DNA of 64,000 bases from Bilabrum cf. latius. Lineage: Eukaryota. The translations under genes were made by a program, and so were the position numbers. Every line of letters begins with the position of its first letter. The first letter of the stretch is position 1. The stretch is from the NCBI GenBank assembly GCA_965178125.1, contig OZ237770.1, positions 186,001 to 250,000 on the forward strand. Reading direction: 5' to 3'. Positions 929-64,000 of this stretch are shown piece by piece. Below the pieces are notes generated by a model. The model made no database searches. It was not told the DNA's origin and worked only from the letters and a program-made list of their open reading frames with translations.

Positions 929-1444
929 GGTAATTATTGAGCTCGTATGTGGCCAAAAGCATGCCTGTTTGGCAGACTGAGATTCTGAACTGGCACGCAA
1001 CAAACAGTCCGAGAGCGACCATATCAAATACAGTAGCCGCGCGGTCTGTTTATTCGTAGACCGCTCGCTGGCGACAATATTATTTTATATACTGCTGCTT
1101 AGCGGGTTCAGGCCTATCATAGTCGCTTGCTGCCGAGCAGTCGGCCGATTGATCCACACGGTCCACTCGGCAAAGGAATCAGCATATTTTCTGACTTGGC
1201 TTGATACCCGTAGCCACAGCAATACGAGGATATGAATCCTTCCACATTTGGTTAGCATCGTGGGGCCCGGGCTGGCGCTGGCCCTGGAAGTGGGCAGGAA
1301 TCGCAGGGTGGGACGCACCACGTTGGCGCGCGGCCTCGTCCAGGGGCACCCAATGGTGTCATGAGGGTGCAAGGGCTGGCTGGAAATTGGAGTTCAAACG
1401 GAGCAAGGCCCATACAGCCAGGCAGGCCAGGGCCGGGTTCTGCT

Positions 1445-8664: not shown

Positions 8665-8813
8665 TGTGGTCTGCTTGAATCGCCGTGGCTCGGTTGTTGC
8701 ACTTGGGATCGATATGACGAGTTGCGGGCTTTATAGATACACGCTTCAAACCGCGATAAATCAGATCGAGAACGGTCGCGAGGAAGCGTCACGGGCTACG
8801 GCCCGGTGAAAGC

Positions 8814-33627: not shown

Positions 33628-35897
33628 ATGATGGGTGCGGTCGGTGTACTTGTGGCTATTCATATAATAACTGGAGCTTGTGCGAGCGCAAAACCAAACT
33701 TTGTGATGATTCTAGCGGGTAAGCAACACGTATGAATATCTGCTCATTCCTTGCGTTCGACTTTGACATGATTTATGAAGTACGAATCGCAACCTGTATT
33801 TGGCTTCGACTCGCAGATGACCTAGGGTGGTTCAACGTCGGATGGAACGGGAACACGCTGATGAAAACCCCATTCATGGACAAGCTCGTAGCCCAAGAGT
33901 CTCTACGGCTCGATCAGGCCTACGCCTACAAATACTGCTCGCGTGAGTACAGTTCGTTTGCCTGTTTTCCAGAGTGGTACCATTAGATGTAATAATCGAC
34001 GATGTTTTAGTGCTAGCGCAATTGTGCATGCTCGCAGCCACCAGGCGTTCGTTCATGACGGGCCGGCTGCCGAACCACGTCGGGATCAAGAACGATCTCG
34101 AAAACGCGACCATTGACTCGAGGTTTGACACGATACAACAAAAATTGAAACGGGAAGCAGGCTATGCCACGGGCATGTCGGGAAAATGGTGAGCGGACCC
34201 GTGTATGACGGGTCTATCCGGATCAAGGGTCTGCAATCAACCGGACTGATGGCGTCTAATCGTAAGCAATTGCGAGTCATCTTCTGTTTTTATCGTTTGT
34301 TGGTGCAGGCACGCGGGCTGCTACACGATGGCCCAGGTCCCGACGGGTCGTGGATTCGACACATCCATCGGGTACTTTCAGGGCATGGAGGACCATTACC
34401 TGCACAATTTCACGGCCTGCAACAACGCCATTGACCTTTGGGACTCGTACGATCCGAGTCCATTCAACCTGACCGGCACGTTCGGCGACTACCTCTATGT
34501 GGATAGGGCCGTGGACACGATCCGCAAGCACGACCAAAGCAAGCCACTGTTCTACTACCTGGCCCTGCAGGTGAGACATCGCGGAGGAGCTTCCCTTGCG
34601 TGGACATTCGTGTGTTTCACCTTGGGACCGGTCAAAACCTACCAATGCGAGCCTCACAACCTAGCAACTCGCGCTTGTAACGGGCTGTTCCCGACTCGAG
34701 CGCAGTACGGTGCAATGGCGCAACCCGTGCTTTCACATCGTCCTTACCAAACTACTAATGTGATATAACCGCACAACTTAGTCCTGCTTCTGTCGCAGGT
34801 GGCCCACAAGCCCAACGAGGCGCCCCCTCGCAACATGGCGGAGTACCCGCCAAGCGTGCCATCGCAGTCGTATTACGCGATGAGTTCGGTTGTCGATGAG
34901 GCTGTTGCAAATGTGACGAATGCACTCAAAGAGGTCGGTATGTGGGACAATACACTGGTGGTGTTCTCGTCCGATAACGGTGAGGCATATTATTCGCAGT
35001 GTTGTCGATCGGAGCTCCAGAACGGAAGGAGGGCTACCAACCGCGTAGCGTGCCCCATTGACCGTAGCCCCCTTTGAGCATATCCATGGCCTACAGCCTC
35101 GCCCTGTTTCCTCTACATTCCACTCCTCTAATTTCTACGCCACACCGCGCAACACTGCAGGCGGGCCCGCGTTTGCCGGTACCTCTACCGCGAGCAACTA
35201 CCCCCAGCGCGGGTCCAAATTTGGGGACTGGCAGGGGGGCGTGCAGGTGGCTTCATTCGTCACAGGGGGTATCCTACCCAGGGAGCAGCGGGGCAGGGCC
35301 ACGAACGCCACCGTTCACATCGCGGACTACTTTGCCACCTTCTCCAAGCTGGCGGGAATCGATCCCGGGAGCGGTCTCGCGGAGCCCAGCGCCGATGCCT
35401 GGCAACGCATCAACCTGGACTCGGAGTCAAAAAACGAAGGGGCTGTCCCTCCTCTCGACTCCGTGAACTAGTGGCCCGTCCTCAGCGGGCAGACAGGCCA
35501 GCCCGCCCGCACTGAGACGTACCTCACCGAGAACGCCGTGATGAGAGGCCCATGGAAGCTGATCCAGGGCAAGGGGAAGAAGCAGCTCGGTGACGCGCAG
35601 TGGTCGGGGCCGTTGTACCCCAAGGTGCCTGCGAACGGAACGGCTGCAGCGGACTGCAGTGCAGGGTGCCTGTACCACGTGCTGGATGACCCAAGGGAGG
35701 AGCACGATCTGGCCAACGAGCAGCCGGGCGAGGTCAAGGAGCTGATGGACCTGTTAAATAGTTACAGGCAGACGAACTTCGAGCCGCAGGTGCCCAGTGT
35801 GAGCATCGAGGAGGTGTGCGCCAAGACGGCCAAGAACGGTGGCAGGCTCACGCCGGCAGATTGGAATGAGAGTCGGCAGAGTAGCGCCGAAGAGTAA
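33628..35897 (+). CDS. Secreted/lysosomal arylsulfatase, ARSB/ARSI/ARSJ-like
   Basis: Signal peptide, KPNFVMILA|DDLGW, formylglycine motif CS|PTRRSFMTGR, GKW|HAG, RGFD, SSDNG. Five GT-AG introns. One TAG in VN[TAG]WPVL. Ends TAA. Confidence 0.9.
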
Positions 35898-40440: not shown

Positions 40441-40452
40441 GGCAAACCATCA

Positions 40453-41955
40453 TTATTCATGCCTACCATTCTTGGACCTCCATGCCCAGATCCTCTCCTG
40501 CTCAGCCGCGGCCTCTCTCAGTACCTCCGCCTTGAGATCGTGCCTTAAGCCGGGTGTGTGGAGCAGCCAGCCCTGTGACGAGTACCAAGGCCACTGGTAA
40601 CCCAGCACGCCAGCATACGCTACCGAGCAGATGCCGCTCTTTGCCGTGCTCGCACCACTTTGGCTCGCCTCGAGCAGTTGCTCGGCCCTGTGCTCGCACA
40701 CGGCGTGCTCGTACGGCAGCGATGCGACACGGTTACCGTCTGCACTGGCCTTGGCGACCGCGTCTGCTGCAACACTGTGGCACTTGCTATATGCCAACAG
40801 TCGACGGTATTTCTGCAGTCTCGTGGCATCTGTGGCGTGCTCCTTGTTCTCCCCTCGGGGCCCGTACTTGTTTCGATCAACCGGGGTTCGGCCCGGCTGC
40901 AGCACACCGTATACACCGGGTCGACTTTCCTGCTGCTACTACTGCTACTACTGCCCCAGCTGCCTACTTCTACTGAAATGTTCACCAAACGCCTTGGCTG
41001 CGTGCAAGGCCCCTTCTAATAAAGGCTGGTCACGGAGACCGTGTCCATCATACCTGCGCAGATAGGCTCGCCCGATCCAGTCGCACAGCAGGGTCGCACT
41101 GCGTACCGTTGGTCGCACGAAGAGAACTCCGGAGTTGACCGGGTCTGTCGTGATGACGTCTCGGCTGTTTTCCAGAGTATGTAATTCTGCATCCGTGTGA
41201 TCCTTCTTAGGCGATGTAGTGCTAGATGCAGATTTCTCTGACTTGCGGTCAATGCTGCTGTCGGCTCCGGTGTGTCCGCCGCACTCTCCCATCGATTTCT
41301 CCACGATCGTCTGCAGGTTGCCGTCACCCGCAGCGAGGAAGACGACGTCCAAGTCGCGCCAGATCAACCAACGGGATCTGCGAGTAGCTGTAGCGGATGC
41401 ACTCCTCAAATGACCCGGCTGAAATCCAGCGCTTGCTGCGGTGGCGCATCGCCTGAAAGCGCCTATCGCGGCGGCCTCTCCAAACTGCGCCCCCGAATCC
41501 ACATGGCTGCCGTCCGTCGGCTACGGCACGAACGATTGCATGCCTGGAAATTCTGCCCTTAGCATTAGGATCGGCTTCATGAAATGGGCCTCGCCGAGCG
41601 TGTCTGTGGTGAGGGCTGCAACGCCGTTCAGTGAGCTGATCTTGTCGCCCAGCCAGCACTCGTACCCATGGTGTTTGCAGTAGGATGCAAAATTGTCGAG
41701 AACTGCTCCGCTGAGATCATGCTAGCCTTGATTGAGCGAAAGGATTGCGAATGGCGACGAAGCATTGGTGTGCAACCGAGTGCCAACCACTGATGAAGAC
41801 TGCCAGAAGTAGGCTTTCCACGGCAATGTGACGTGGTGCCTGTACGAAATTAATACAGCAATCATGATCTGCACAAGGACCATGGTGCCAAACATGGCCA
41901 GCGATGAAGCGGAGCAGCTACTTATCGACCGCGGTGGTGGTCGATTACTGTGCAT
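40453..41955 (-). CDS. Type II membrane glycosyltransferase, GT34/GMA12-MNN10-like
   Basis: N-terminal TM segment, NFASYCKHHGY, WLIWRDLDVVF (DxD), VNSGVLFVR, LRDQPLL. One frame through 6 TAGs. Ends TAA TGA. Confidence 0.75.
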
Positions 41956-44996: not shown

Positions 44997-46145
44997 TCAC
45001 AGCGAGCAGTGCTGCCACACCGGCGGGAACTGCTCGCCCCTCTGCCTATACTCTGCGAGCACCTGCTCGGCCTGCTCGTACACGGCGGTCACATTTGCAC
45101 CGACCATCCCAGGCTTCGTGTGATCAAGGGCTTCAAGGTGGTGACTCTGATGAGCTTCAGAGTCGCTGATGCTCGTGTGAGGTGGCTCGGGCGGGAAATC
45201 CCCGTTGAATAGCTCTTTGTTGGACTGCAGCCACGCCGTGAAATCGCTCCAGTGAGCCGAGTCCTCGTCGCTCCAGATGATGGTGCCGTCGCAGCCCATT
45301 TGCTGCGGCTGCACGAATGACAGCCATGTTTCCTTCGGTTTCAGGTACTGCACATTACCCGTGTGGTACCTGGGCCAGGCGTACGGAAACACCGGCTTGC
45401 CGCCCACAGCGGCCGCGACCTTCTTCGCGTTCAGCAGCGTTGCGTTCACGTACTACTGGTTCCGATCGAACGTTGCATTCGGATAAAACTGGTAGATGGA
45501 CGGAAAGAGCGCATCCACGTCCCTCCAGACCTCTGCGAACTGCATGTTGACCTCGAAAATGCTCGCCCAGTCGCAGCTCCAGTAGCACCGAGTGGGGTGC
45601 CCATAGTATCCAACCTTTGCTTTCGGAATGACCTGGCGTACTGCTGCATTCGTAGCCAGCATGAACTGTACGGCTGCTTTGTTAAAGCTGATTTCGGCCT
45701 TGGAAAAGGCCACTTCGGGCGAGAGACTCGGATCCGCTTTCAATTCGAGCGCTACACTCATGGCCTAGTACAGCGTAGAGCTACCATTGAACTCAGACCA
45801 TGACTCGTAGTCGACCACAGCAAAACCGTCCCAGTTCGAGTCATTGACCCTTGCGCGAACGTCGCGAACAGCCGCTTCAGTGTGCGCAGACAGGTTCGCG
45901 AGCTGTGGCAAGCCGCCATTGCACCACTACTCGGGAGCCGACGCATCATTTTGATCCCGTAATAAAGGGTAATCTCCAAAGTATGTGGTAAAGAGTTCGA
46001 CTGATTTTCGTTTGATCCAGGTGTAGTCCGAGGTGCTGTAGTTGCTCGGTAAGCCTCCCACGTTCCAATAGAATCGGTATGGTGCAGCTGCATACCCTAC
46101 CGATAGACTTGTAACGGACAGCAGGAGCGACATCGTAGCCACCAT
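44997..46145 (-). CDS. Hyaluronidase (GH56)
   Basis: Signal peptide, FYWNV, GDYP, NGGLPQ, GFAVVDYESW (DxE), VGYYGHP, ALFPSIY, PVFPY, GCDGTIIW. One frame through TAGs at 45927, 45765 and 45453. Confidence 0.85.
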
Positions 46146-46760
46146 TACTGCTTTATCAGCACTGAATCTGGGAAGCCACCAAGTTTGGCGCCGCGCATAA
46201 TTCCGGAACCAACGTTTGCGACGACTCGCCGACGAACCAAACTTTGAAGATGAGTGTGTATTGATTGTCTGTTTGCTATTCTGCAAAGTGGACGCATCAC
46301 CTTGACAACCGTTCCATCATTTTATAAGGTTCATTTGGACCGGATCATCTGAGATTGGTGAGGACGACTCGGAGCGTGGTATATGCCATGGACCAAAGCA
46401 AGTAGCCACGGTGTGTCTTCGCACAAGAACGCTGTCTCGATACACGCTTTCAAGGACATGTTATTGAACATGCGTTGTTGCAATCGTTTTACGTGGAACA
46501 ATTTTAGGCCCAAGAGCTTGCATGCTGGTCCAGGGAACCTGTAGCCGAGCACCCAAAGTGTCTGCACCGTACGCGCGAAACCGATTCGATTGGGTTTGCA
46601 TCGTCAGGCCGCATTTAGCGGGTTTTCATCACCCCAAGTTTGGAATCGCTGTTAGAGATTATAACATACTGCATTTCACGCGTATCACCTCTGATCTGTC
46701 TCGCAGTTACCGATGGGACTGCAACATCACGTGTTGAGATCGCTTCAACGCGTCTCATCC

Positions 46761-49700
46761 ATGCTCTCCTTGCTCCTAATCGTTCTCGCGAGTTACGCTG
46801 CGGCTCTTCGTATGACGTTTAATGGACATGCACTTAGACCAGCCGTGGGCTCCATTTCTTCATCTGGTTCGATCTTCTTCAGCGGCATTTCCCGCCATGA
46901 GGACCCCGGAACGATGAATTACTTTGGCAGCCGGGTGGCAGTGACATCGAACCACGCGTTCGCTGTAGACGACGACGATCCACAGAGCTACACAGACCCA
47001 TTCGCATCACCAGCGGACCCCACAAAGTCCCGCTTGTCGGTGTTCGGCATTTCCAAGTCCACGCTGCAGCCGGTTGCCCCAGCCATCGTGCCCAATCTCC
47101 TGGACACGCGCCCCAACAACCAGACAGCACCGCTGGTGGCAGCCCGCAGCGCCCTCGATGCCTGCGTCACCAGTAGCGGCTATGAGTACGTCGCTGCTGC
47201 CTAGGGCGAAGAGGTGCTCGTGTACGTCAGGTGAGGTGATGTGGACACTTCCCACACGCGGCGCGCGCACTCACTCGTTAGGGCCGGGGGTGTGAACACG
47301 CACTGCTCACTTGCCGGCTACTCAGCACCCCAATAACCCTAGCAGTATTCCCAGCTTACTAGTATTTCACGTCACAACCATTCCATTGCGCTATTTTCTT
47401 CCTCTGTGCCTTCATGCCTGGCCCTCGCAGTCGCTCGTCAGACGCGACAGGTGTGTTCCGCTTGCACACCCAGCTCTTCTCCAGCCAGTTCCAGGACAGC
47501 GACGGGGACTCGATGACGATTGACCGCAATAGAATCGATCGGCAGGTGGTGATCGACTGCGCCAACACATCACTCGCCGGGGTGCCCCCCCCCAGGGTCT
47601 ATGTCAGCTCGGGCGGCTCGCTGGAGCAGTGGGAGGACAAGCCTGGCTCCCCCCTCAACGAGGGGTACTGCAACCAGATCATGGAGCTCACATCTACCGA
47701 CGCGGACGGGGGCACCCCATTCGCAGTGCACGACATTTTTGGCTCCGAGTTGAACGCCACCGGCGACAACGCGACGTACTACCTCGGTGACGAGCCCGGG
47801 CTGGACGAGCTGACGTACGAGCCCAATGAGAATGACCCGAACGCGGTGCTGTTTGCCCCTCCTCTCATCAGCGGTGCAAAGCAGAGGGACCATCCGGCCC
47901 TGGGTCGCTTCGACGTCGATGGAGACCATCTGTTCGGAGCGGGCGACGACCCCAGAGTGTCTGTCCATAGATACCAGAGGAACCCCAGCACGCTCAAGTG
48001 GGAGCTGCAGGAGACGATCCAGCACGCCTGCCACGAGGAGAGGGATTACACCAACCTGCCCTCATCAGGGATTGACCTCAGACCGTTCAAGGGTACCACG
48101 ATCGCTGCTGCGGTGAGTCGTGCGCGCACGGATCCAAACTCTCCGATCGCTGAAATACCAACCTTCGCCGTGGGCTGCAGAGCCGAGACGTTCGTTCCAA
48201 CGTCTGCGGACAGCACTCAGGTATCAAACGGACTTGCAGAGGCAACAAGCACTCAGCGTGGGTCTGTCGAGGTCCGTATCTTCCGGAAGGCTGCCTCGAG
48301 GGACCAATGCAGCGGCGAGGAGGGCAGTTTCTGGATGCATGCGGAGCCCTTGGATGTCGAGCCCATCGATCTGATCGGGGGCGAGGTGACCGATGAGGAC
48401 CTGTTCAAGGCACTGGCGCCGCAGGTCCGATTCCTTAAGGAGACTGAGCTGCCGAGCGATGTTTCGGGTGATTTCGAGCGGGACTAGATACAGATATTCA
48501 TCGGTGACCCGGGCTTCAACGGTGCCTCGCGTGACGTCGGGCGCATAGTACTGGCGACTGTCACATTTGGCGAGACCAGCGCAGCTGCGCTTCTATCCTC
48601 GGATGACCTACCGATCACCACAAGCATCAACCGCGTGGTCACCAATTCTTACATCCCTGCAGCGTCGATTGTGGAAGACGCGAACAACCCAGTTCTGACG
48701 GACCAGTACTTTGGTGCTGGGGCCCTGGCCGTGGACTCGTTCGATCGGCCGTTCTACCTCTCCTCGGTCGTGTTGGTGCTTACAACCGTGCCGCAGGGGA
48801 GCCAGCCGTTCATTGCCAGCGTAGGACTCATCGAGGAGCAGGACAGGGTGATTGAAGCCCCCCAAGCGGGGTCATACCCCGCCCCCCCTGTGGGGTTTGC
48901 CAGCACCGGCATACAGGAGGAGGTGCCCAGCTGGAATCAGGCCACGGGCGGCGATGGACGACTCGGTGGGAGCATGGACGCCCACGGCACCTGGCTTGCG
49001 ATGTCCTTCGAGACCAATGTGACCGTGTACTTCAACGCGGAAGCGCCAGATCAAGATGACCCGGCCTCGGATGCGCTCTACGACTCAAGCAGGGGCGTGA
49101 CCCCCGTGTTTCATTCCACGGTCCTCTCGCCCGAGATGGTCCTGGGTAACTCGTTCAGTGCTTGGGAGGAGGACCTGCTGGACACGCAGTATGCGGGGAT
49201 GCTGTGGGGGGGATATCACGCTGACTCCTTCCCGGGATTCGTGCTGAAACAGTCGGACTACAGGGGGTATGCCAGCTTCGTTGGCACTCCGGTCGTCAGG
49301 TTCATCTCCGGGGATCGATCCCCGGACGGACAGCCCAGGCTCGCCGTCCTGCTCACGACGGAGAGGAGGCTGCCCCCGGCTTCCGCCACGGCAATGCTGC
49401 AGGATGGCTCCGCCAGCAGGACGCACCTTGTTGTGCTTAGGCCAAGGCCCAAGGTCCCGGCCAGTGCAGGGAACGATTGGTCTGCGGATTCATCCGACGT
49501 AGATCCAGCGTCTGTGCGGTGGCAGCTCGAGACCTCGACGGAGCTTCCGTCCGATTATCAGATGTGCGTGACTCGCTGCTGGGCCGCTGCAACGACTGGC
49601 ACCATACCCAACGAGTTTGACACCACGAGCGACTGCTCCAGCGGCGCGGACTCCGACTTGTTCTCCGCCCGGAACCAGCCGGCTGCCTGCACCCGGTCGT

Positions 49701-52700
49701 TGGAGATCTTGCAGGTCCCCACGGCCGCTTTGAGCGAAGAGCCGGCGGCCCCTGTGGCGGCATGTGCCAGCGGTAGCCAGCACTAGGCAGTACTGGTGCT
49801 ATCCAGCCCCATCACCAAGAAGCTGTACGCTGCTTGCCTCGACCTGTCCGGCGTGGGTAGTCAGTGGAACCAGCCGGGCAGGGCGAATTTGACGCTCCTC
49901 TCTGGTGCAACCACCGCAATCCCAGACACGGCTGCCGTGTCATCCGACCGGAACACCCTAACCGCGGGGCTGATCGTAAGCACCGGAGTGCTGGCTGGCC
50001 GCGGGATCGTAGCAGTCGGCTCGGACAGCGAGGCGCTCAAGCTGTTCTCTGTGAATGCAGCAGCGACCAGCGCAAGTCAGCTGTTCCGGCCCATCGCCCT
50101 TCGTGACGCGGTGATGAAGGTGTCCACTGAGATGTACGTGAGGCCCGGATTCGATGTCAGGATTCTGGGAGATCGGATGACCTTGCTGGCGGGTGTGCCC
50201 GCCATCGAGGCCAATCTCGCTGCAATGCCCGAGCCTGCCAACTTTGGCGAGATCAGAGCGGGCGACGTGGGCGTGTACGTGATCGGGCCGGTGACCGACA
50301 CGTCCTTCTCCACCGGCGATTTCAATTCCGAGTTCGACGCCATCACGGAGGAGGGTATGCTGCGTGACGCCTCTCAGCAGAGGGACATGATCGACACGCT
50401 GCAGGTGGTGCTCTAGGGTGTGATCAGGGCCCCGAGTGCTCTGAACGAGGGAGTGGGCGCGAGCCAGTTCGGAAGGAGCATCCTTACTGGGGGCGGTCTG
50501 TATGACGAGTATCGCACCGTGGGCATTGTGTGCCCTGCCAGCCCGTACGAGAGCTCTTCAACGGACACGCTCACCGAGTTCGGCATTGTCTTTTACAGGC
50601 AGGTGGTTCATCCCACGCAGGACGCATCCGGCACCAACGATGTGGCTGGGATCGGATCGTCCCGCCGATTTCCTGTCGAGACCACGTCATGGCTCGAGCA
50701 GCAGACCCTGATGGTGAATGGCTTCCTCAATGCGAGATCAAGTGCCATCAACGCGGAGCAAGGCAGCTTCCCTGGATACGACGGGACGACCGACAACCCT
50801 TGGGCGGTTGGCATGTATCAGTACTACTACGGCGGATTTGCGGTGGCTCGGACAGAGGATCGCTCGCATGGCCCAGGCACGCAAGCCACAAACCCCTCAG
50901 GGGCGGCGGGCAGCATGCCCCGCATTTTCCTGTAGAGCATGGGCCTACCTCGACAGGTGGATGCAGTGGTGCTGACTGCCGATCACACGGAGCTGGAAAG
51001 CGCTGAACTTGCCACAGGTAGGCCCGACTCGCCCATGCAGCAGCTCACAACGGCACTGCATGCAGCGTGCGGATTCGATGACGGGTCGGCGGCTGCGGCA
51101 GCTCTGACAGACGAGGGCGTGAGCTGCGCCACCGTCGTCTCCGTGCGCCCGTACGATGCCGCTGCGTTCGCGTTGGATCCGTTCTAGGTGGACCAGCTGT
51201 TCCTTTCTGAAGACTATTCTCTCGTGCCGATCGACATCAGGGGATTGGATCGGGAGAGGACGCTGATCCAGCTGAAGGAGCCCTCTAGTAGCACCTCTTC
51301 CTCGACGTCGAGCGCGGTCGGGCTCAAGCACGCCATTCTCAGGGATCTCACCGTCTCGGGAACCAAGGAGACGAATATTTCACCCACATCCGTTGCGGAC
51401 AGCGTGGGCGGCAGCGTGGCAGTGTCCGCTGCAGGCGTGTTCGACGTCAAGGAAGGAGGTCAGCTGCTCATGCAGCGCGTGAGGGTGCAGCACGGCTACA
51501 GTGCAGGCAGCGCGGGGCTGATCCGCATGCGATCCGAGTCGGCTCTGTTCGCCACGGAATCGATTTTCTTCTCGGGGGCAGCGACGACGACGGGGGGCTG
51601 CATCGGTGGTACTGCGGCCCACATCGAATTGTGGAACTCCACGGTCGCGTACTGCGGTGCGCTGGGTGCGGGTGGCGGCGGCATCGCGGTGGATGGTGAG
51701 TCGGCGGTTCAAATGTACGGTTCGCTGATTCTGGGGAACACTGCCGTGGGCAGCGGCGGCGGGCTGCTCATGTCCTCTGCCGGGCCCTTGGGTCTATTGG
51801 TGCAGGAGTCTGTGTTCGCGCAGAACGTGGCCAGTGGGTCCGGCGGCAACATGGCTTTGCTTTCAGTGTACGGCAGGATTGACGAGTCCTAGATCCTGGC
51901 GGGTTTTGCCACCTCCTCCGGAGGCGGCGTTCTGGTGGAGCAGGGCTTCAGTGGCGGCGCCGTTCGGTTCCGCAGGAGCGTGGTGGGCGGAAATTAGGCG
52001 GGCGAGGGCGGAGGCGGCGTGCTGGTGTCATCGGCGGGCGGCCTGGGTTCCGTTCGATCTGCGTTCGTGTACAACCGCGCCACAGGTGCATCCTCCAGGG
52101 GCGGGGGCGTGCAGGTTGCATCGGGGGCCAGATACAGCGACGTGCAGTCTGTCTATGGCCACAATGGGGCGGTCACTGGGGGTGGGCTTGGAGTGACCGG
52201 TGAGGCCACTGTCGAAGTGGCGGGATCCGTTCTCTATGACAACGCGGCAGACACAGGGGGCGGAATGTCTTGCGATGGTGAGAGCTCCGTCACGATCCAT
52301 GGGATGGCTGGGCTGCACGCTCTCTAGCACGCAGCGGGCTACGCGACCTTTCTGCAGAACACCGCCTCGGTGTCCGGAGGCGGCAGCTCGCTTCAGGCCT
52401 GCCGAGCCTTGCTGGTGAACGTCAGCCACACGGGCAACACAATGAGACAGAACTCGCGCTTCCGGAGGGTGCTCGGTCTGCTGGGCACTGAGATGTCAGG
52501 GGTTGGTTTTACCGGCGGGGGTGCTTCGAGGGGTGCATCCGGTGCGGACTACTTCGGGTTTGACCAGGCAATGACCGTGCAGGCCTCTGTGGATCCGGCC
52601 ACCGCGGCGCACGAGCAGTCTCCGTACTGGGAGGCCGACGGCAGCGATCCCGCGCTGGTGGTGGACGAGGACCAGCAGCTCTACTTCCGGTCTGGACCCA

Positions 52701-55700
52701 TGGATCGGATCATGCCCGCCTTCCGAACCAAGCTCCGCACCTACTCGGTGAATCCTCTCAGCACAGTGTCGCTCAGCTCGGACGGCGTCAGCTCCGGAAA
52801 CGGCGCGGGCATGTTCGTGGCTACCACGGCGGACGCAGCCGAGTCGCTGGACCCTCTCGACTCCAGCAGCATCCGGGTTCGGTGCTTCCGGTGCAGGTTC
52901 GTGGGGAACCTTGCGCTGGCTGGGCTGGGCGGTGCCGTGTACGCCGCGGGTGCCACGGATGATGACGAGTGCACCGAGGTGCCGGCCACGTGCACCACGG
53001 GAGCAAAGGCCATCAAGGCGACTTACCTTTCGTTCCTTTAGAGCTGTCCCCAAGATTTCCAGCAGAACTACGCCGGGGGCTCTGGGCCAGACGTGTCCTG
53101 GACGCAGATCGAGCCCACTGGCCTTCTCGCTGTGCTACTTAACGATGACACGCTAGGGGGAGGGGAGCCGGTCGCGACCCCGCACACCAGCCGGCCGGGA
53201 GCCTGTGACTGGGACTCGCTAGAGGGTCCCAGCTACGCGGAATATTCATTTTCCGACAGTGAGCAGACGCGCATCGAAGAGAGCGGAGCCTCCAATCGCA
53301 CCCAGGAGTTCCCGCTCTCGTCCATGCCTACCAACATCGGCTTCGTGCCGAACTACGGGGTCGAAACATCGCCCGAGCCGGGGTCTGTGCTCGCCGCCGC
53401 CGCTTCCAGTACGACCACAACCACTACCACTACCACTACCAGCGGTGGAAGCAAGTTCGAGGAGGCAGACGTTACCTCCAACTTTGGGGAGTCCACGCTG
53501 GCAGTGGAGCTGAGGGACAGGTACGGCTACCGCGTGGATGCAACGCAGTTCGGCCAGCTGATCGTGCGGGCCACTTTGTCGAGGGAGGAGACGCAGAACG
53601 TGGGGCAGTACACGGGAGACAGCACCGACTCGGGGACGGATCGCAGGCGCCTGCGGAAACATGCCAGGCGGCTCGGCAGGGGGCGTGGGTTTGGGGGCAG
53701 GAGACTGCAGGGGGGTGGCGGTGGCGACGAGGAGGATGATAACGAGCCGAGGCAAGGGGAAGATGCAGACGGGAATTTCCTTGACGGGACGGTGACGGCG
53801 GTTCTGTCCGAGGATGGCGTGGCGGAGTTTAACCAGCTCGAGTTCAGGGGGCGGCTGGAGGGTACAGCGACCTTCCAGGTGTACATCGATCCCAGCCTCG
53901 GCGTGAGCGCGTTCGGCACGGTCTTGCAGGTGGCTGACAACTGCACCGGCAGGTCAGAGTTCGACGACGACGATCTCGAGTGCAAGAAGTGCGGTGGTGA
54001 TTACGAGTTCTCCGACGGTCGCAACTGCTTTGCGTGCCCGGCAGGCACCGAGCTGAAAGAAGATTCTCAGTCTGCGCCCAGGGGGGAATGCCGCAGCTGC
54101 ACGAAGGGAAGGTTCTCTGCCGAACGAGATGACGAGTGCACCGAGTGCCCGGTGGGTCGGTTTGCAGAGAGCAGCGGAACCGCTGACGAGTGCACCGAGT
54201 GCCCGCCCGGCAGGTTCACTGCCCTGACGGGATCCACCTCGTGCGAGGCGTGCCCGTTCGGGTCCATCCAGCCGGTCGCTGGACAGTCGGGGTGCACCGG
54301 GTGCGGAGCCGCAGAGGTGTCCGTTGACTCGTCCACGTGCGCGTCCTGTCCCGCCGGGTCGATCCCCAACCCGGTTGCAACCACCCTCGATGACGTGGCG
54401 TGCGTCACTTGCCCTCGCGGCTCGATCTCAGCCGAAGGGGATGAGGAGTGCACCACCTGTCCACTGGGAACGGTGGCCAATGCGAACCGCACGGTCTGCG
54501 AGACGTGCCCAGAGTCCGACGGTGTGACCTGCACGGGCTCGGCGATGTCCCTGGACAGCGGGTACTGGGTGGACGTCGACGACGTGGTGGTTGAATACGA
54601 CACCGAGAGCAACCAGATAGTGAGGATGCCCGAGTCCTCCATCGTACACGTCTGTTCCTCCACGGCGGTGTGCGTGTCCAACCTGACCGATGCTGGGGTT
54701 GCGGTGGATGAAGACGGCAAGGCTGTTGCAGTGCTGTGCGCAGACGGGCACGATTAGGAAGTGCCCCTGTGCTCCGTGTGCGAAGGCGATTTCGCGCAGT
54801 TCAGCGGACAGTGCTCCAAATGCTGGTCCGAAGCCGCCAACACGATCGTCATCGTGATCACCATTCTGATTGCGGTGATCATCGCCGCTGCCATGGTTGC
54901 TAGGACGCGGGCGGCCGCCACAAAGGCAGCTGAGAAGGGCAATCTCCTGTCCGCAACCATCCGGATCGGGCTCAACTACCTCAAGCTGATTACCACGCTG
55001 GGCGCGTTTCGAGCAAAGGCGCCCGAAGTGATCGCCAGTTTGCAGGAGGGTGCATCCACGGTGAGTAACGGGCTGTCCTTCAACGTGCCGCCGGTGGCCT
55101 GCGCCTTTGATTTCACGTTCGTGGGTGTCTTCTGGGCCACCATGACCATCCCCTTACTGATCCTCGCGGGGTGCGCGATTGTGGCCGCGGGACTATACGC
55201 CAGGGCACAGTGCAAAATCCAGCGCGAACAGGCGAGGCGGAGTGAGCTCTCCCCTCAAGAGCAGGCTTCGCTCGATGATAGCGACCCTGTCCCGACGCCA
55301 AACCAGCTGTGGGACACGTACGTTGGCGTGTTCGTGAGCTCGGTGATCATCCTCGTCTTCCTCACATACCAGACAATTCTGGCCACCACGGTCAGCGTGT
55401 TTGACACCTATGACGTCCCGATCGACGGCAAGACGTACCTGAACGCCGACTTTAGAATCACGACGGATGACGCCGTGTACGACCAGCTGGTGGCAGGGGC
55501 TATCGTGTCGATGATCGTGTACGTGGTGGGCATCCCGCTGCTGGCCGCCTTCCTGCTCTGGAGGAACCACGACAGGCTGCACGTGCGGGAGGTTATCGAG
55601 TCCTACGGCTTCCTGTTCCTTGGGTACGAGATTGGGACCAAGGCCAGGGTCAAGAGGGTGGTGGGCGCGCGAGAGCGCGCTACCAGGAAGCAGCAGAACC

Positions 55701-57043
55701 TTGCGAGAGAAGAGAGGTTGGCAGCAGCGGCCGCCAGATCCGCGGCCCGCAGCGCCGGGGCAGATGAGGATGCCGCTGCGGAGGAGGCGGTGGCGCAGCT
55801 GCGTGCCCAGCGCGATGCAGCCGGGATCTCGCTGTCGGGTTCATCTGCAGACAACGCGGTGGATGGGTACCTCGTGGATGGGATTGCAGACACGATGGTA
55901 CAGGAGGTGGACATGGTCGACGATGACAGTGCCAAGAACAGCACCTTGGGTGGGGGTGCTGGCAGGACGGCTGTGATCGGGGTGGCCAGGGAACAACGGG
56001 AGGGTCAGGGCCAGGAGGAGGGCGGCCCGGATGGAAGCGATAGCCAGGGCATGACCCGGGTGGGTACCGTGGCGCTGATCCAGACAGCCAAAGAGGACGA
56101 GGACCCGTTGGTGGGGAAAAGGTCCAACTACTATTTCTGGGAACTTGTGGTTCTCGCTCGGCTCGTGGCGACGGTGCTGCTGAGCGTGTTTGTGGGGGAC
56201 ACGTTCCTGCAGTCGTTCTGGGCGGCGTGTCTCGTGGTCGCTGCGCTGGTGCTGCACCTTTCTTACGAGCCGTTCGAGGACAGGATTCTGAATGTCCTGG
56301 AGGCCAGCGCGCTCATTAGCGTGTTCACGACTCAGATGGGCTCTTTGCTCTTCTTCTTCAGGCAGGACCGCGACACCGAGCTCCTCGTGACATTCGTGCT
56401 GCTTGCCGTGAACATCGCCACGCTCCTGCTCTTTGTCCTCTGCGCCGCCGCGAGCGTGATGCCGCCCGAATGGCTGGCACAATCATGCTGCTGCCCTACG
56501 CTGCTGGTCAGGATCTTCCACAGGAAGCGGGCGGCGTTCGCAGTGATGGAGCTGGAGAAGCGGGCCTCGGAGCACAAGAGGCGGAAATCGAGGATGCTGT
56601 CTAGCGGTGTGACGAGTGGTAAAGACGGTGTGACGAGTGATGACGAGCGGAAGACCCAGCTCGCGTACGCTGCTAGCGTGCCGGTGACTCAGCCTGCGCA
56701 GGCTGCTGGAAGCGGGGCAGCTGCCGCGGTGGCACCTCATGCCGGGCGAGATTCCCGCTCCGAATCCACGACGAGGCAGGCGCTGGCCTCATCTCACCCG
56801 AATGCATCGAACCCGGCATCGAACCCCGGGGGGGACAGCGTCCGCGGCGAGATGGCAAGCCCTGGGCTGGTTCGGCCAGGGACCGGGGGCAGCGCGAGAA
56901 GTAGCGGCTCAGGGGGGGGCGGGCACAGGGTCACCCCAAGGGGGTACGGGGAGGGCTTCGAAGAGGCCGGTGTGGCGAGTGCGGTTGGTGGTGTGACGAG
57001 TGCGGGTGGTGATGGTGCAGGCGAGGGGAAGGACGACAGCTGA
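46761..57043 (+). CDS. Giant (~3360 aa) surface protein: signal peptide, FG-GAP-like region, Pmp-type beta-helix repeats, Cys-rich repeats, multi-TM C-terminus
   Basis: One intron (47231-47430), then a 9.6-kb exon in a single frame broken only by TAG (11 TAGs in the gene). GGG(I/V)...F..N.A repeats, C..CP.G repeats, SYGFLFLGY and YYFWELVVLAR in the TM region. Ends TGA. Confidence 0.85.
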
Positions 57044-57301
57044 GGCTGTGCTGCCCGGGGCCTCGTGGCATCGCCAGTGGTGGAGTGTTCTTTCGATTGG
57101 GGCGCAGTTGGAACGGGGAGGGATAGAGCGCTAGGCTTAGCTGCACTTCTGTCTTGAATCAATAGCGAACACAGAAGTGATCCATGGGATGCTTGGAAGC
57201 CCACATGTCCCACCTATCCGAGGAGTGTTCTACTTGCGGAACCAACTTTATGCTGTGCGCGGCGATCGACCGGTTCTTGATGAATACCACATACTGTCGC
57301 C

Positions 57302-58374
57302 ATGCACAGAAGATTCGAATAGCACGGCCGATGGAGCTCGGTTCGAGCAACAAGCAGCTAGGCTGCCGCGGCACCACGGCCGCTGTCTTTCGTTGAAAGC
57401 GTAGTTGCAGGAGCCGCGGCTGGTGGCACCGAGCTGCTAGCCATGTATCCACTTGATACTGTCAAGACCAGGCAGCAACTCGTATCTAAGGCTGACGCAG
57501 CGGCAGGGAAAACACCAAGTCTTGTTGGGACTTTGCGCGATATAGTTAAGAAGGAAGGCGCTTCGGCCCTCTATCGAGGTATCTTGTCGCCCTTGGCAGT
57601 CGAACCCTTCAAGCGCGCTGTCAAATTCTCAGCAAATGCAAAATATAATGCATTGATTGTAGGAAACGGAACGAAGACTGTGCTCACGTCAACAATTTGT
57701 GGCGCCATGGCTGGGATGTCGGAGGTGAGCCTGCAGACGCGTCGCGAACTAACGCATGAGACTGCTTGCAAGCTTGCTAGGGATTTCTGCCGCAAATGTG
57801 CCAACTTGGTACGTATTTTTAATCATTACATACCGTGCAGGTGGTTATCATCGCTCCTTTTGAAGTGGTAAAGGTGCGCATGCAGAGCAAGGAGCGTAAG
57901 GCGGTGTACAAGGACACGTTCGACGCAATCCGGAAAATCATGCAGCAAGAAGGGCCTGTTGCATTCGCACAGGGACTTGAGTCCGCTCTGTGGAGATAGG
58001 CAACCTGGAACGGCACGTATTTCGGCGTCATATTCTGGCTGAAGACCCAGGTCCTGTGGTAGCCAAAGACGGATTCCACCCTGTCCGTGCTGGGCCGCAA
58101 CTTTACAGCAGGAGTGCTTGCGGGAACGGCTGCGACCGTGCTCAACACCCCGTTCGATGTTGTTGTTAGCCGGATGCGAAACGTGCTCCCCGGCGAACCA
58201 ACCCCATACCGCTGGGCCTGGCCGAGCCTGGCGCGGATCGCGCGGGAGGAGGGGCCTAGGGCGCTGTGGAAGGGATTCGGAGCCAAGGTGGCCCGGCTGG
58301 GACCAGGTGGTGGTATCATGCTGGTGGTGTTCGAGCTCGTGTCCAACTGGCTGCGGTCTCTGGACGAGAAATGA
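57302..58374 (+). CDS. SLC25A21: Mitochondrial 2-oxodicarboxylate carrier-like, copy 1
   Basis: MYPLDTVKTR, EPFKRAVKF, PFEVVKVRMQ, NTPFDVVVSR, RLGPGGGIMLVVFE. Intron 57725-57840. Four TAGs. Confidence 0.85.
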
Positions 58375-58800
58375 GGATAACGAGAGGGTCTTATTTGGGA
58401 GCTTGAGGACGATTGAGGGCATGGGCAATCATGCCGCACAACAGGTGCAACACGGAATGTTAAACAGTTAGGCTTTTTGCTAGGATCGCACACGCGGCAC
58501 GTCTCATTGTTGCGGCTGTAGCTGCAGCGCGATCAAGCGCACCCATTCTCAACCTGTCTTCACTCCTGTTGGCCGAGCAACTCAAACTATACGACAGGCA
58601 GTCGCGCCGGCAGCATATTATAGCAACCAGATGAATAGGCACTTATCGGCTATAGCTTGCTTGCGTCGCGTGACAACATGCGTTTCGTCTCCCTCTCAGT
58701 ATTCGTCACATGGCGTGGCACCATCAGCTGGCCTGATCAGAAACGATCAATCACAGCACATCTTGGAGCCAAGGACCCGAACAAGCACATAAAAAGAGCC

Positions 58801-59922
58801 ATGCATCGTGCCGTAGACCGTGTCGAGATACACAAATCCGTTCAGGAGAGCAGACCTGCGACTAGGGCGTCGCTGAGGCAGCTATCCTTCGTTGAGAATG
58901 TAGTTGCAGGCGCGGCCGCGGGAGGTACAGAGCTTCTGGCCATGTACCCTCTCGACACGGTCAAAACGAGGCAGTAGCTTGTATCAGCTGGAAATTTTGC
59001 AAAAGGAGAATCTACATCGATCATCGGATCGCTTCGGACGATCGTGCAGAAGGAAGGCGCTTCGGCACTGTACAGAGGTATCCTGTCACCGCTTGCAGTT
59101 GAGCCATTCAAGCGAGCCGTCAAGTTCACGGCCAACGCGAAGTATAATTCGCTCATTGTGGGCAAAGGAGAGAAAACCGTCTTCACTGCGACCCTCTGCG
59201 GATCACTGGCAGGCATATCCGAGGTGAGAAATGCGGCGAATCTTTGCCGCCGTCACCAAGCGTTCGCGCGAACTGTTCGCTGCTTGCATACGAATGGTGC
59301 GCTACGCTACCAATATCACGCATCTGATACGTGTTTCTAATAGCGCGGCTTGATCATCCCATCATGCTCGACAGCCTACCCCAAGCCGCAGATTGGCCTG
59401 ATCGCTCCTTTTGAGGTGATTAAGGTGCGCATGCAGAGCAAGGAGCGCAGGGCGGTGTACAGAAGCACATTCGACGCGCTCTCGAAGGTACTTCGACAAG
59501 AAGGCCCTATGGCGTTCGCGCAGGGCATTGAGCCCGCACTGTGGAGGCAGGCGAGCTGGAGCGGTGCATACTTTGGCATGATCCACGCCCTCAAGACGCA
59601 GGTGCTATGGACACCGGATGCGAACACGCCTGGGTCCTCGCTCGGTCGCAACTTCACCGCTGGTGTAATTGCAGGGACGGCTGCGACCGTGCTCAACACC
59701 CCGTTTGACGTGGTGGCCAGCCGGATGCGGAACGTGCTTCCCGGCGAACCCACCCCATACCGCTGGGCCTGGCCGAGCCTGGCGCGGATCGCGCGGGAGG
59801 AGGGGCCTAGGGCGCTGTGGAAGGGATTCGGAGCCAAGGTGGCCCGGCTGGGACCAGGTGGTGGTATCATGCTGGTGGTGTTCGAGCTCGTGTCCAACTG
59901 GCTGCGGGAGAGGAGCCAGTGA
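58801..59922 (+). CDS. SLC25A21: Mitochondrial 2-oxodicarboxylate carrier-like, copy 2
   Basis: Same motifs as copy 1. Intron 59224-59391. One TAG at 58975. Confidence 0.85.
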
Positions 59923-60919
59923 AGTGAGGCGAGCAAACGAGCGAGCGAGCAAGCAGCTGCTCCAGCACCAAGGGTGGAAAGAAGGAAATTAGCCTCGATC
60001 CCCAAGCCTATATGTGTCTTGCAGGCAGGGACGTTTGCTCCACTAGAGCGGGCGGCTAGCGGCCGCAGCTGGTACTGATGTCATGGATCCCGTCACATTG
60101 GCGTGGTCTCGGCACAGGCAGCTTCGGGATCGCAAGCTCGGGGGCGTACAATGGTTGCCACAGCATGTCTGGAAAGGCTGCGGGCAAGCCTAACTTGGGA
60201 GGAGCGTGTACACTTACATAACAGCGGAATGGAGTCGGGTACGAAGGAGACAGGCCTGCGTTCTGCACTGCTTGGTGCACGAGCGCGTCTGCTCTCCGCG
60301 AGCTCGAGCTCCAGGTGGAACTATAATACATGGAGTTGAGGGGTTTGAGATCCGCTGCGTGCGAGTTTATCTCCCCCGCGAAATGCTTTGAGTCTATTAA
60401 TTTTGCTTGGCGAGAAGATCCGGATCTACACGGTGCGCGTCTGGCATGCACTGCTTCGATATCCTGGATCGGGCATCTGAAGTAATATCTATATTTTGCC
60501 GCCAGGAATGCGCAAACCGTCGCATCCCCCTAGCATTTCAAGCACTATCCATGTTGCATTCACTTTCACCTTTGCCCCGACACGATGACTCTGTTGAGTG
60601 AGTCCAGGTCTATTTGTTGATGCTCCGCTCCCCTCCTGCTCGGATCAATGACGAACGAGCACTTAAAACCGGGAAAGGGGAGCACGATGATACACGGCTC
60701 ACGAGACCAACCAACGCGCCCTAAGAAGAGCGCGCAAGGATCTCAAGCGAGCCAAGCCAGCGATGCCCCAATATGGCACTCCGCACGGCTCGATTGACAA
60801 GTAAGGGGCGAGCTAGTGTCCTGCCTTGCTCGCTTCCCCCCCATCCCCCCCCTCCAAAAAAGCAGCTATATAGCCCCGAGCTCAGGGAGGGCTTACTTCT
60901 CGCTGTAGCCCACCGCTCC

Positions 60920-62342
60920 TTACTCCCTCGCTTCTCTAAATCCCTTGAGCTGGGAAGACACCAGCTCATAGAACACGAGAACGATACCACCACCTGGTCC
61001 CAGCCGGGCCACCTTGGCTCCGAATCCCTTCCACAGCGCCCTGGGCCCCTCTTTTCGTGCGATCCGCGCCAGGCTCGGCCAGGCCCAGCGGTATGGGGTG
61101 GGTTCGCCGGGAAGCACGTTTCGCATCCGGCTGGCCACCACGTCAAACGGGGTGTTGATCATGGTCGCAAATGTGCCGGCGATCGTCCCCGCAGTGAAGT
61201 TGCGGCCCAGCACGGACAGGGTGGAATCCGTCTTTGGCTGCCACAGGACCTGGGTCTTGAGGTGGTGAATGATTCCGAAATACGCCCCGCTCCAAGCGGC
61301 GTGCCTCCACATCGCGGGTTCGAGACCCTGAAAGAGGCCCCCCAGCCTTTCATTTTTTGCGATCTGGAGGAAGGCCCTTCCCGCCCCCCTGCTATACCTC
61401 CAACCGTGTTCCCTGCTCTGCATGCGCACTTTGACCACCTCCTGAGGGGCAATGGTCAGGGCCTGCGAGGAGGACACAAAGGAGGGATCATGATTCGAGC
61501 CGAGGAAGGTGCATGACGAGATGCGGGCGTGGTCAATCGCGAGTAGAGGAGCTACCAGGCAGTTACATGCCGTTTGATACATTTCAGAGCATTGTATGAA
61601 CCAGAAAATGACATTGAGAGCAATGGGCTGGGGTCGGCCGAAACGTGTGGTGCACCGTAGCGCCGCGACTCGCCACTCAGAACCAACCATGCTTCGGCAC
61701 ACGTACTATGTATTCGTACGCTTATACGGCCATATCGTGATACATGCTGCACACAAAATCAAATCCACCAGTTCTATGCCTGCACTAGCGCTATATAACA
61801 CATGATTTTCTCACCTCGACCGCACCAGCAAGCGAGCCGCACACAGCTGCTGTACCTGCAGATTTTCTCCGGCTAGAGCCCACTAGCAAATGAGTAAAAA
61901 GCTCATTACCAGAAAATTTGAGTCCTCGCTTTATAGGTTCAATGGCCAGCGCAGAGCCGATTCCTCGGTACAGCGCCTTGGTTCCTTCCGTCGCGACAAC
62001 TGACTTTAGCATGCCCATAATGGAGGCCCTGTGAGGTGAAATCGCGCCGGATCCACCGCTCAATTGCAGACGTGTCTTGACTGTATCTAATGGATACAAG
62101 CACAGCAGCTCTGCGCATCCAGCAGCGCCACCAGCGACTACAGTTTCCCCGAACATCGTCCACTTGGCAGAATAGTCCGTGCTAGTTCCTTTTACAGCGG
62201 CACGATTGCTCTTAAATCCCATCATGTTTTGGTACATGCCAGTAACATGATATCTGCTTGAAGTCTCAGTCGCATTTGTAGCCGTCATGGCACACGGCCT
62301 GAGATTCGAGCTGTGATGGCTTCGAGTTGCAGTTGACATCAT
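60920..62342 (-). CDS. SLC25A21: Mitochondrial 2-oxodicarboxylate carrier-like, copy 3 (inverted)
   Basis: LYPLDTVKTRLQ, EPIKRGLKF. Intron 61814-61463 at the homologous position. Ends TAA. Start codon uncertain. Confidence 0.8.
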
Positions 62343-62424
62343 GCGCGCAGCAGCGGTTTCGTGAATGTTGCGTGTAGAATGAAAAAACCTCAGGTGCACA
62401 TATTCATCAACAGCTCTCTAAGCA

Positions 62425-64000
62425 ATGAGTGGAAGGCATCCAGGAAGTGATTTTGGTGGATGGCTCATATCTGGGGCAGTTACAGGAGGTGTGGCGGCTC
62501 TTGCAATGATGATGTACCGAAAACAGCGGCATGATGCAGATTTGTAAGTGCGCCCTTGCCTCCAAAAAGATCACCTGGCATTGATAGGCCATTTGCATTA
62601 TTCCGCGTATGTGATAATTACTCATGGTGCAACGGTGCTCGCTCGCAGGCTTGCTCAGATACCCCAGCGGACGGCGGCCGAGATTCAGGAGCTTGTCAGG
62701 CAGACTTCTCTTGGGGGGAACGAGCCGCCGCTTGTTGCCACGCGTGGCGCCACCGCGCCATCGATGGCTTCTTCATAGCCAAGGCTAAGAATACCGGGCC
62801 TCAAAGCAGACATGCTTGCGGTGGAGCAGAGCACGTTCCTTCATGCGCAGCGGGCGGTCATTGTCAAGAAGCCCAAGCCGTCGTCGCAGGGGGGAGCAAG
62901 AACACAATTGGAGCAGTCCAGCGGTGGTCGCATGGACGGCACCGTCCTTCGATTCGAACAACAAGCCGGTGGAAGCAGCAGCAGCAGCAGCAGCGGCGGT
63001 GTTGGCAGTGGGCCAGCACCGCACCGGCAGTTGCGACCAAACTCGCAGCAGGAGTACAGAGCAGCTCCGGGAGCGCCCAGCGCACCGCCAGCCGATGCTT
63101 CCAATGAGTAGGACCCTCCCATTCGAAACGACAGGACCGCTGGCAGAGAAGAAGAAGATCCGCAGGCGCTGTCGGGGTCAGGTCGCCAATCCACCGGTGG
63201 AGCCGGTACCCCACGCGGCCAGGACCATCGCCGGGCCACATCGCCCACGCCCGGATTCTGGGGCGGAAGTTCCTCCTCCTCCTCCTCCTCCTCCTCCTCC
63301 TCCTCCTCCTCCTCCTCCTCGGCGACTTCGTCCTCGTCACAGGGGCCTGCCAGTGGTCCCACCCAGCCCACGGAGGCCCCTTTTGACCTCGAGATCAAGC
63401 TGCTCAAGGAGCGCAAGCCCGAGTCTACGTACCGGTCCCAGCTGCCCTTCTCGGTGATAGATGAGACAGGGCGAGTTGAGGTTGCGACCGGCGGCGGCAT
63501 GCCGGAGCCGCCGCTGGAGCCAGTCAGGACCCAGCACGTTGTGTTTGACGCCCTGAGCCCGGAGGACAGGTACCAGGCGGGGCGATCGGAGCTGCGGATC
63601 TCGGAGGTGAGGCATCACGAGGCCTCGGGGGTTAGAACCACCAGCTGGCCCAGCCCGCCGGCGTACGGGAAAGTGCCCCAATCCCCGGAGGCGGCCGAAT
63701 CTTTTTCGTCTCGAGAGATAACGTGGTCTGCGCTCCCGGTCGGCACCGTGCTTACGGTGGTCGGCACCGCACGGCGGCTGACCGAAGCAGGGCCTGACGC
63801 GGTCGAGATCGGACCTGGGACTCGGGGCGGGCCCGCCTATGTGACGAGTGAGACGCTTCCATCCCTTGTGCGTAGGCTCGACTCAACGGCTAGTATCACC
63901 TACGGCGTGACTGTGGCGATCGGATTCGTGGCTGGCGCCTTGACTGCAGTGGGGGTGTGGAAGCTGGGACAATGGGCTTGGTCCAGGCTTGGCGCGGGTG
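62425..64000 (+). CDS. MUL1/SP1-like GIDE-domain membrane protein (putative E3 ligase); truncated by the window end
   Basis: N-terminal TM, one intron (~62544-62649), LPFSVIDETGRVEV, LPVGTVLTVVG, PAYVTSETLPSLV, second TM. Two TAGs. A RING domain is not reached in the window. Confidence 0.65.
63271..63320 (+). repeat. (TCC)n tract encoding poly-Ser
   Basis: Directly visible in the sequence. Confidence 0.9.

Follow-up and report, generated by a model that had tools for sequence, protein, structure and literature searches.

Widespread in-frame TAG, probably read as glutamine, in two of three mitochondrial carrier paralogs and their neighbours on a GC-rich eukaryotic contig

Does TAG end translation, or is it a sense codon, in a nuclear genome where it lies in frame within paralogous mitochondrial carrier genes? 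The question is raised by a trio of such genes, copies 1 and 2 on the plus strand and copy 3 on the minus strand, in a 64,000-nucleotide stretch of contig OZ237770.1 (positions 186,001 to 250,000), hereafter the window, to which all coordinates below refer. A sequence-only reading of this DNA had located TAG codons at 57997-57999 and 58060-58062 in copy 1 and at 58975-58977 in copy 2, and proposed that TAG stands for glutamine (Gln). All three codons were found at these places, and the Gln reading is supported, as TAG swaps with CAG or CAA across paralogs, between pairs of orthologs and within a polyglutamine run. We consider it very probable that UAG means Gln in the nuclear code of this eukaryote, with translation still ended by UAA and, more commonly, by UGA.

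To place the three codons, we used a codon alignment of the spliced carrier copies, which agrees with the correspondences proposed earlier. At 57997, TGG AGA TAG GCA of copy 1 aligns with TGG AGG CAG GCG of copy 2, the facing codon in copy 3 being CAC. At 58060, the TAG of copy 1 faces CAG in copy 3, and this T/C change is the sole difference within a run of 62 nucleotides (58042-58103) shared by both copies. At 58975, AGG CAG TAG CTT of copy 2 aligns with AGG CAG CAA CTC of copy 1, and copy 3 also has CAA. The column at 58975 is the most telling one: of the 120 homologs listed and aligned, 98 are ungapped at this point, with Gln in 97 of them and His in the remaining one. This TAG lies in the first carrier signature, P-x-D-x-x-K-x-R-x-Q. 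The column at 57997 is mixed, namely, Asn in 77, Gln in 18, His in 15 and Ser in 10 of the 120 homologs, with Gln the commonest residue (nine of 19) among those chosen for alignment A1, and the column at 58060 is variable. Further correspondences come from two metagenome contigs, L001 and L002, which carry orthologs of these genes: six codon pairs have TAG on one side, and CAG stands opposite in three of them. Lastly, an unrelated gene on the minus strand contains the polyglutamine run CAG TAG TAG CAG TAG TAG CAG CAG (40936..40959). In translated genes TAG thus interchanges with CAG and CAA frequently and in a selectively neutral manner.

The use of TAG within genes extends to the whole window. 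We assembled 14 gene models, namely, the three carriers spliced according to transcripts, the exon at 47431-57043 and ten open reading frames (ORFs) taken from their first ATG; among the products of the models are a Sec24-like protein, an FGGY kinase, an alpha-L-fucosidase and a GH56 hyaluronidase. Over a total of 11,702 codons, TAG occurs in frame 56 times, whereas TAA and TGA are absent; in the other two frames of the same models the counts are 61 and 64 for TAG, 16 and 39 for TAA, and 198 and 174 for TGA. In-frame TAG is therefore about as common as off-frame TAG, far more than chance would allow. It is found within 13 of the 14 models, makes up 12.1% of their Gln-type codons, and terminates none of them, all ending in TGA or TAA, in what is a small sample. 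When TAG is treated as sense the longest ORFs grow from 875, 761 and 727 to 3267, 1493 and 1376 amino acids, and treating TAA as sense leaves them unchanged. The clearest single case is a 9.6-kb exon of a giant gene (47431..57043, plus strand), which has ten in-frame TAG codons, no TAA or TGA, and a TGA stop. The ORF that holds it, 47240-57043, gave 12 TAGs at first count, two of which (47279 and 47360) fall in an intron, leaving ten in the exon. A contig from run X7 covers 47428-56908 after the joint 47227>47428, without a single different letter.

These genes are expressed and under purifying selection. Contigs from four sequencing runs were compared with the window: X2, a DNA run, and the transcript-type runs X5, X6 and X7, which come from studies P2 and P3. 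Joints at 57722>57839, 59221>59390 and 61461>61814, with GT..AG borders (CT..AC for the minus-strand gene), are present in X5, X6 and X7 and absent from X2. In all, five introns show GT..AG joints, four of them in X5, X6 and X7 and one, 62543>62649, in X5 and X6 only, with none in X2; it is because of these spliced joints that X5 to X7 are taken as RNA-derived. Over 47000-63000 no alternative letter was seen in any of the four runs, and T stands at every TAG covered; in the carriers, zero other letters were found in the pieces 57243-57722 and 57839-58090 (X5), from 57309 on (X6), and 58861-59221 (X7). A search for C at the TAG sites, the observation that would have spoken for CAG, thus yielded none in the assembled contigs. 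Sequencing error and complete U-to-C editing at the TAGs are hereby excluded, and a minor variant is still compatible with the contigs.

Selection was assessed by the ratio of nonsynonymous to synonymous substitution rates (dN/dS), estimated by the Nei-Gojobori method. Between paralogs dN/dS is 0.17 (copies 1 and 2), 0.28 (1 and 3) and 0.26 (2 and 3), with synonymous sites saturated over the first two thirds of the genes. We turned to orthologs, namely, two tandem carrier genes in L001, and in L002 an ortholog of copy 3 with the same neighbouring gene, leaving out L003 and L004 (34% identity). Searches for further DNA of relatives yielded none among genome contigs and no locus among viral contigs. 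Against L001, dN/dS is 0.036 for exon 2 of copy 1, 0.076 for exon 2 of copy 2 and 0.064 for exon 1 of copy 2, and the orthologs in both L001 and L002 have in-frame TAGs of their own. The sequence-only reading had named unexpressed pseudogenes with dN/dS near 1 as what would overturn it; instead, spliced contigs exist, and the ratios are 0.17-0.28 between paralogs and 0.036-0.076 between orthologs. Given this selection, the spliced transcripts and the T kept at the TAGs, copies 1 and 2 are functional, expressed genes and not pseudogenes. TAG therefore recurs in frame in genes that are transcribed, spliced and constrained, is found at Gln positions and is kept in RNA.

With TAG as sense, which codons end genes? 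TGA is the main stop, closing 12 of the 14 models, and TAA closes the other two. The TAA of copy 3 coincides with the C-termini of its homologs. Another informative end is that of a sulfatase gene outside the 14-model set, whose TAA (35895..35897, plus strand) is found where its homolog ends, with 39 residues past the alignment to arylsulfatase B as compared with 24 left in the solved chain. Reading through TAA would add about 50 unmatched residues to copy 3 and about 100 to the sulfatase. Seven ORFs keep the same limits however TAA is read; their 8,534 codons contain 36 TAGs and no TAA, with 5.3 TAAs expected if TAA:TAG followed CAA:CAG (P ~0.005). With none in frame, and with a TAA closing two genes at the point where their homologs stop, TAA looks like a stop, and its retention appears to have weak to moderate support.

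Several points weigh against the reading that we favour. The three remaining ortholog pairs face TAG with ACC, GAA and GGA (Thr, Glu and Gly), in variable stretches, and at variable sites of other genes the residue opposite TAG is Arg twice in human Sec24A, Lys, Arg, Lys, and Met or Gly in hyaluronidases (GH56, solved structures), and Pro in a solved kinase homolog. Such variable-site residues seem compatible with Gln, neither supporting nor contradicting it, so that the identity of the amino acid draws mainly on one near-invariant column, the CAG and CAA correspondences and the polyglutamine run. The case for Gln decoding comes from DNA and assembled contig sequences; in these contigs minor variants are hidden, and the RNA nature of X5 to X7 follows from their spliced joints, X7 being labelled 'probably DNA'. 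The ten first-ATG models are without transcript support. As for TAA, the sample is small, with two informative ends, because in the gene at 40453 (minus strand) the terminal TAA is directly followed by TGA (tandem TAA TGA, 40450-40455), which makes it uninformative. Finally, the machinery that would decode UAG is missing from the DNA searched: scans of the window and of both L001 and L002 gave no tRNA gene, the window gave no Rfam match, and no member of the release-factor family (eRF1) was found among 78 window ORFs scanned against Pfam, with 226 ORFs of 130-759 amino acids listed.

How far, then, do other explanations account for these data? What follows on published codes is limited to the parts of the cited papers that were available. 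One rival is that both UAG and UAA mean Gln, as in the 'ciliate/Dasycladacean' code, with TAA too rare in 64 kb of GC-rich DNA to show. UAA and UAG are usually reassigned together (PMC5304391), NAA codons are under-used in the window (CAA:CAG is 68:338), and just two TAA ends are informative; however, the 5.3 in-frame TAAs expected are absent, none of the top ORFs becomes longer with TAA as sense, and the extensions of copy 3 and of the sulfatase past their TAA match nothing, so that we regard this code as quite unlikely. A different matter is whether UAG could be sense without a dedicated tRNA, either because tRNA-Gln(CUG) mispairs at the first codon base while a changed eRF1 offers no competition, or because UAG is context-dependent, sense within genes and stop at their ends. 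Near-cognate tRNAs do reassign UGA in other protists (PMC13092985), and the failure to find a tRNA(CUA) gene in the window or in either of L001 and L002 would fit. Yet ten UAGs in one gene, and at least one in 13 of 14 models, demand decoding that is close to complete, a TAG terminator is required by none of the 14 models, and those UAG-reassigned genomes for which tRNAs are described all carry tRNA(CUA) (PMC11687900). Altogether, decoding of this kind is unlikely, though worth keeping in mind.

That TAG is sense for another amino acid, such as Glu, Lys, Arg or Leu, might be argued from the Arg, Lys, Glu, Gly, Thr, Pro and Met that face it at variable sites, and codes in which UAG is Leu, Ser or Glu do exist in other eukaryotes (PMC11687900). 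Against this stand the near-invariant site with its 97 Gln out of 98, the presence of CAG or CAA opposite TAG at all three noted paralog sites and of CAG in three of six ortholog pairs, and the TAGs embedded in a CAG run; another amino acid is accordingly very improbable, and, given that TAG is sense, Gln is almost certainly its meaning. A last explanation retains the standard code and takes copies 1 and 2 for pseudogenes or for nonsense alleles, or else attributes the TAGs to sequencing errors or to codons edited to CAG in the RNA. CAG to TAG is a common C to T mutation, copy 3 is without TAG, and the first observation taken alone consisted of three sites. We find this explanation hardly credible in view of dN/dS values of 0.04-0.28, spliced transcripts in two studies with T kept and four runs that agree on the letters, 56 in-frame TAGs but neither TAA nor TGA across the 14 genes, and orthologs in other samples with their own TAGs.

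If UAG is indeed reassigned to Gln with UGA and UAA kept as stops, a tRNA-Gln with anticodon CUA would decode it, a tRNA that could arise by one base change from tRNA-Gln(CUG) and whose anticodon would pair with UAG and not with UAA, while eRF1 would have lost UAG recognition. This proposal of tRNA-Gln(CUA) plus altered eRF1 is modelled on other reassignments, including the cited result for tRNA-Gln(CUA) of Tetrahymena (PMC5304391, PMC11687900).

The three carriers share one gene structure, with a single intron at the same position in all copies, and their exon translations match Pfam Mito_carr with E values from 6e-20 to 5e-36. Three Mito_carr stretches were found in copies 1 and 2, namely, one in exon 1 and two in exon 2, and two in exon 2 of copy 3, the scan having covered exon 2. 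Exon 1 of copy 1 (57302..57724, plus strand; ORF with Mito_carr E 6e-20) has a putative ATG at 57302, its start being inferred, and two further TAGs, 57320 and 57359, are in frame if this ATG is the start; transcript-type contigs begin at 57243 or 57309, make the joint 57722>57839, and have no other letters. The intron (57725..57840, plus strand, GT..AG, 116 nucleotides) is spliced out in contigs of X5, X6 and X7, its joint being absent from the DNA run X2, and is followed by exon 2 (57841..58374, plus strand; Mito_carr E 5e-36), which holds TAG 57997 and 58060, ends at TGA 58372-58374, and is covered by contigs up to 58090 with no other letters. In copy 2, exon 1 (58801..59223, plus strand) has its TAG, 58975, where the carrier motif calls for a near-invariant Gln, and contigs of X5, X6 and X7 that bear the joint span this codon. 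The intron of copy 2 (59224..59391, plus strand, GT..AG, 168 nucleotides; joint 59221>59390 in X5, X6 and X7, not X2) leads to an exon 2 (59392..59922, plus strand) with no TAG and a TGA stop at 59920-59922. Copy 3, on the minus strand, consists of exon 1 (61815..62156), whose start is uncertain, an intron of 352 nucleotides (61463..61814, CT..AC on the plus strand; joint 61461>61814 in X5, X6 and X7), retained in one X7 contig, and exon 2 (60920..61462), which has no TAG, has CAG opposite TAG 58060 of copy 1, and stops at TAA 60920-60922. Its coding sequence probably begins upstream of the ATG of exon 1, where the residues are conserved in L002.

Among the database matches listed, those named for a function are 2-oxodicarboxylate carriers (SLC25A21/Odc), at 43-54% identity, and the remaining named ones are called 'hypothetical protein' or 'mitochondrial carrier'. 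From the annotation of their nearest named relatives and their position inside the family in the tree, the three carriers are predicted to be of the 2-oxodicarboxylate type. They resemble SLC25A21 and yeast Odc1 and Odc2 in their Mito_carr repeat architecture and in the 43-54% identity of named matches; unlike these, they form three tandem paralogs with concerted 3' ends, in a clade that is all environmental, and their specificity is a prediction. The 3' tract in question (58083..58356, plus strand; partners 59634-59907 and 60957-61330) was recognised from identity and the synonymous divergence, dS: the tract at 58083..58356 shows 92% identity as against 72-74% upstream, the identities over the three segments are 92%, 84% and 88% as against 71-75% upstream, and dS, saturated over the preceding parts, falls to 0.34-0.51 in the last third. 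Gene conversion keeps the 3' ends of the three carriers alike. The copies in L001 and L002 share a 3' segment of their own, so that concerted evolution is ongoing in both organisms.

To which eukaryotes this organism is related can be approached from the same window. Its GC content is about 60% (51-68% in 2-kb windows), and its introns are few and short, GT-AG, of 105-352 nucleotides, among large intronless exons. Named best matches are scattered and mutually discordant, coming from the part of the tree that holds fungi, animals and Amoebozoa and from some excavates: among those listed, a nucleariid, Amoebozoa, a euglenid and Mucoromycota for the carriers (51-54% identity), chytrids for Sec24 (30-33%), and acanthoecid choanoflagellates for the fucosidase (52-54%). 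Neither ciliates nor green plants are among the organisms named for the matches listed. A quick maximum-likelihood tree, built from 108 carriers, joins the three copies to P0001-P0003 with 99 support in the Shimodaira-Hasegawa-like approximate likelihood-ratio test (SH-aLRT), and all six nest in a clade of 27 sequences, all of them environmental proteins (SH-aLRT 97). Anaerobic metamonads seem disfavoured by three carrier genes of the 2-oxodicarboxylate type. Two candidates were set aside, namely, the aphelid Amoeboaphelidium, with GC contents of 40.5% and 39.9% (PMC10608142, Table 1) against about 60% here, and Nuclearia thermophila, with 44% GC and no code change mentioned.

Two paralogous large Cys-rich membrane proteins (21267-25748, plus strand, and 28110-30875, minus strand) are 34% identical (E 8e-55) and match no Pfam family, and this Cys-rich family, queried as a lineage-specific protein of 921 amino acids, has four matches among 1.84 billion representatives, all from environmental assemblies. 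The alpha-L-fucosidase (6793-8730, minus strand) has a Cys-rich C-terminal extension; its acanthoecid relatives (52-54%) carry PAN-type domains, and bacterial and insect enzymes are further away (35-46%). Beside it are a GH56 hyaluronidase (44997-46316, minus strand) and at least two sulfatase genes (34250-35897 and 42802-44703, plus strand), a cluster of lysosome-type hydrolases suggestive of an organism that is phagotrophic or degrades glycans in an animal-like manner. The giant gene (46695-57043, plus strand) has more than 3200 codons and one intron of 200 nucleotides (47231-47430), its product has Cys-rich repeats of the ephrin-receptor type around residue 2300 and membrane spans at the C-terminus, and one spliced transcript-type contig spans it end to end.

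The DNA run also showed some irregularities. The summed depth of X2 contigs is about 6379 in one bin, as opposed to about 65 elsewhere (53408-53941 and 56600-57015), and many X2 contigs break with loose ends around 56605-57015; low-complexity or repeated stretches common to other organisms in the sample are probably responsible for both. Over 47000-63000 there are 82 X2 contigs, of which 44 are 95-99% and 26 are 90-95% identical to the window, so that close variants or sister strains may coexist in this run.

Among catalogued codes, NCBI table 15, the 'Blepharisma' code, is the one in which UAG alone becomes Gln. As far as the available parts of the literature go, codes that split UAG from UAA are rare, being known from a single metamonad, rhizarian and green alga each, besides some ciliates (PMC11687900). 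In the metamonad Iotanema spirale (Fornicata) UAG means Gln, and UAA and UGA end translation (Panek et al. 2017, PMC5304391), and the window is like it in that UAG alone is reassigned, to Gln, and UAA kept as a stop; the UAG share of Gln codons is about 8% in Iotanema and 12% here. Iotanema, however, is anaerobic and has UAA as its primary stop, whereas TGA is the main stop here (12 of 14), and a GC content of about 60% together with three carrier genes of the 2-oxodicarboxylate type indicates an unrelated organism. UAG alone means Gln also in the ciliates Hartmannula sinica, Trochilia petrani and Protocruzia tuzeti (PMC11687900), which have the same codon table as here and where, as here, the expected tRNA(CUA) would read UAG and not UAA. 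Unlike in ciliates, the window belongs to a multi-gene contig of at least 64 kb with GT-AG introns of 116-352 nucleotides and about 60% GC, and no ciliate is among its listed named matches.

Both UAA and UAG mean Gln (NCBI table 6 type) in Amoeboaphelidium protococcarum, ulvophyte algae, hexamitid diplomonads and Streblomastix (PMC5304391, PMC11687900, PMC6299283), as well as in oxymonads, according to the parts of these sources available. With such lineages the present organism shares a change from stop to Gln in a nuclear genome, and Amoeboaphelidium, the one relative of fungi reported in them with a stop-to-Gln code, is on the fungal and animal side of the eukaryote tree, like the best named matches here; the difference is that no sense TAA was found in 8,534 codons. 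Thus, the type of code is already known, and it is the host that differs, being GC-rich and aerobic, known from environmental data, and with TGA as its main stop. We found no report of UAG as Gln in GC-rich eukaryotes other than ciliates and metamonads, in a literature coverage that is incomplete, and the case may already be described. It is tempting to speculate, at slightly less than even chances, that an aerobic GC-rich lineage, possibly allied to opisthokonts, changed UAG alone to Gln independently, in a genome with TGA as the usual stop, and that no code of this type had been known before from beyond those two groups.

An immediate implication is practical, since standard-code gene callers fragment nearly every gene of this organism. 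The giant gene, whose frame is open over 3267 codons, breaks under the standard code into pieces of at most 761 amino acids, and because standard-code gene calling splits its genes, the proteins of this organism in public collections are fragments. Transcript and DNA data are present in at least three studies, from which one should be able to recover its tRNAs and its eRF1. If it proves to be an unrelated GC-rich case, it adds an independent origin of the UAG-only code, one that would allow testing whether capture of UAG alone follows from the rarity of UAG as a terminator, and that would bear on how eRF1 drops UAG yet keeps UAA.

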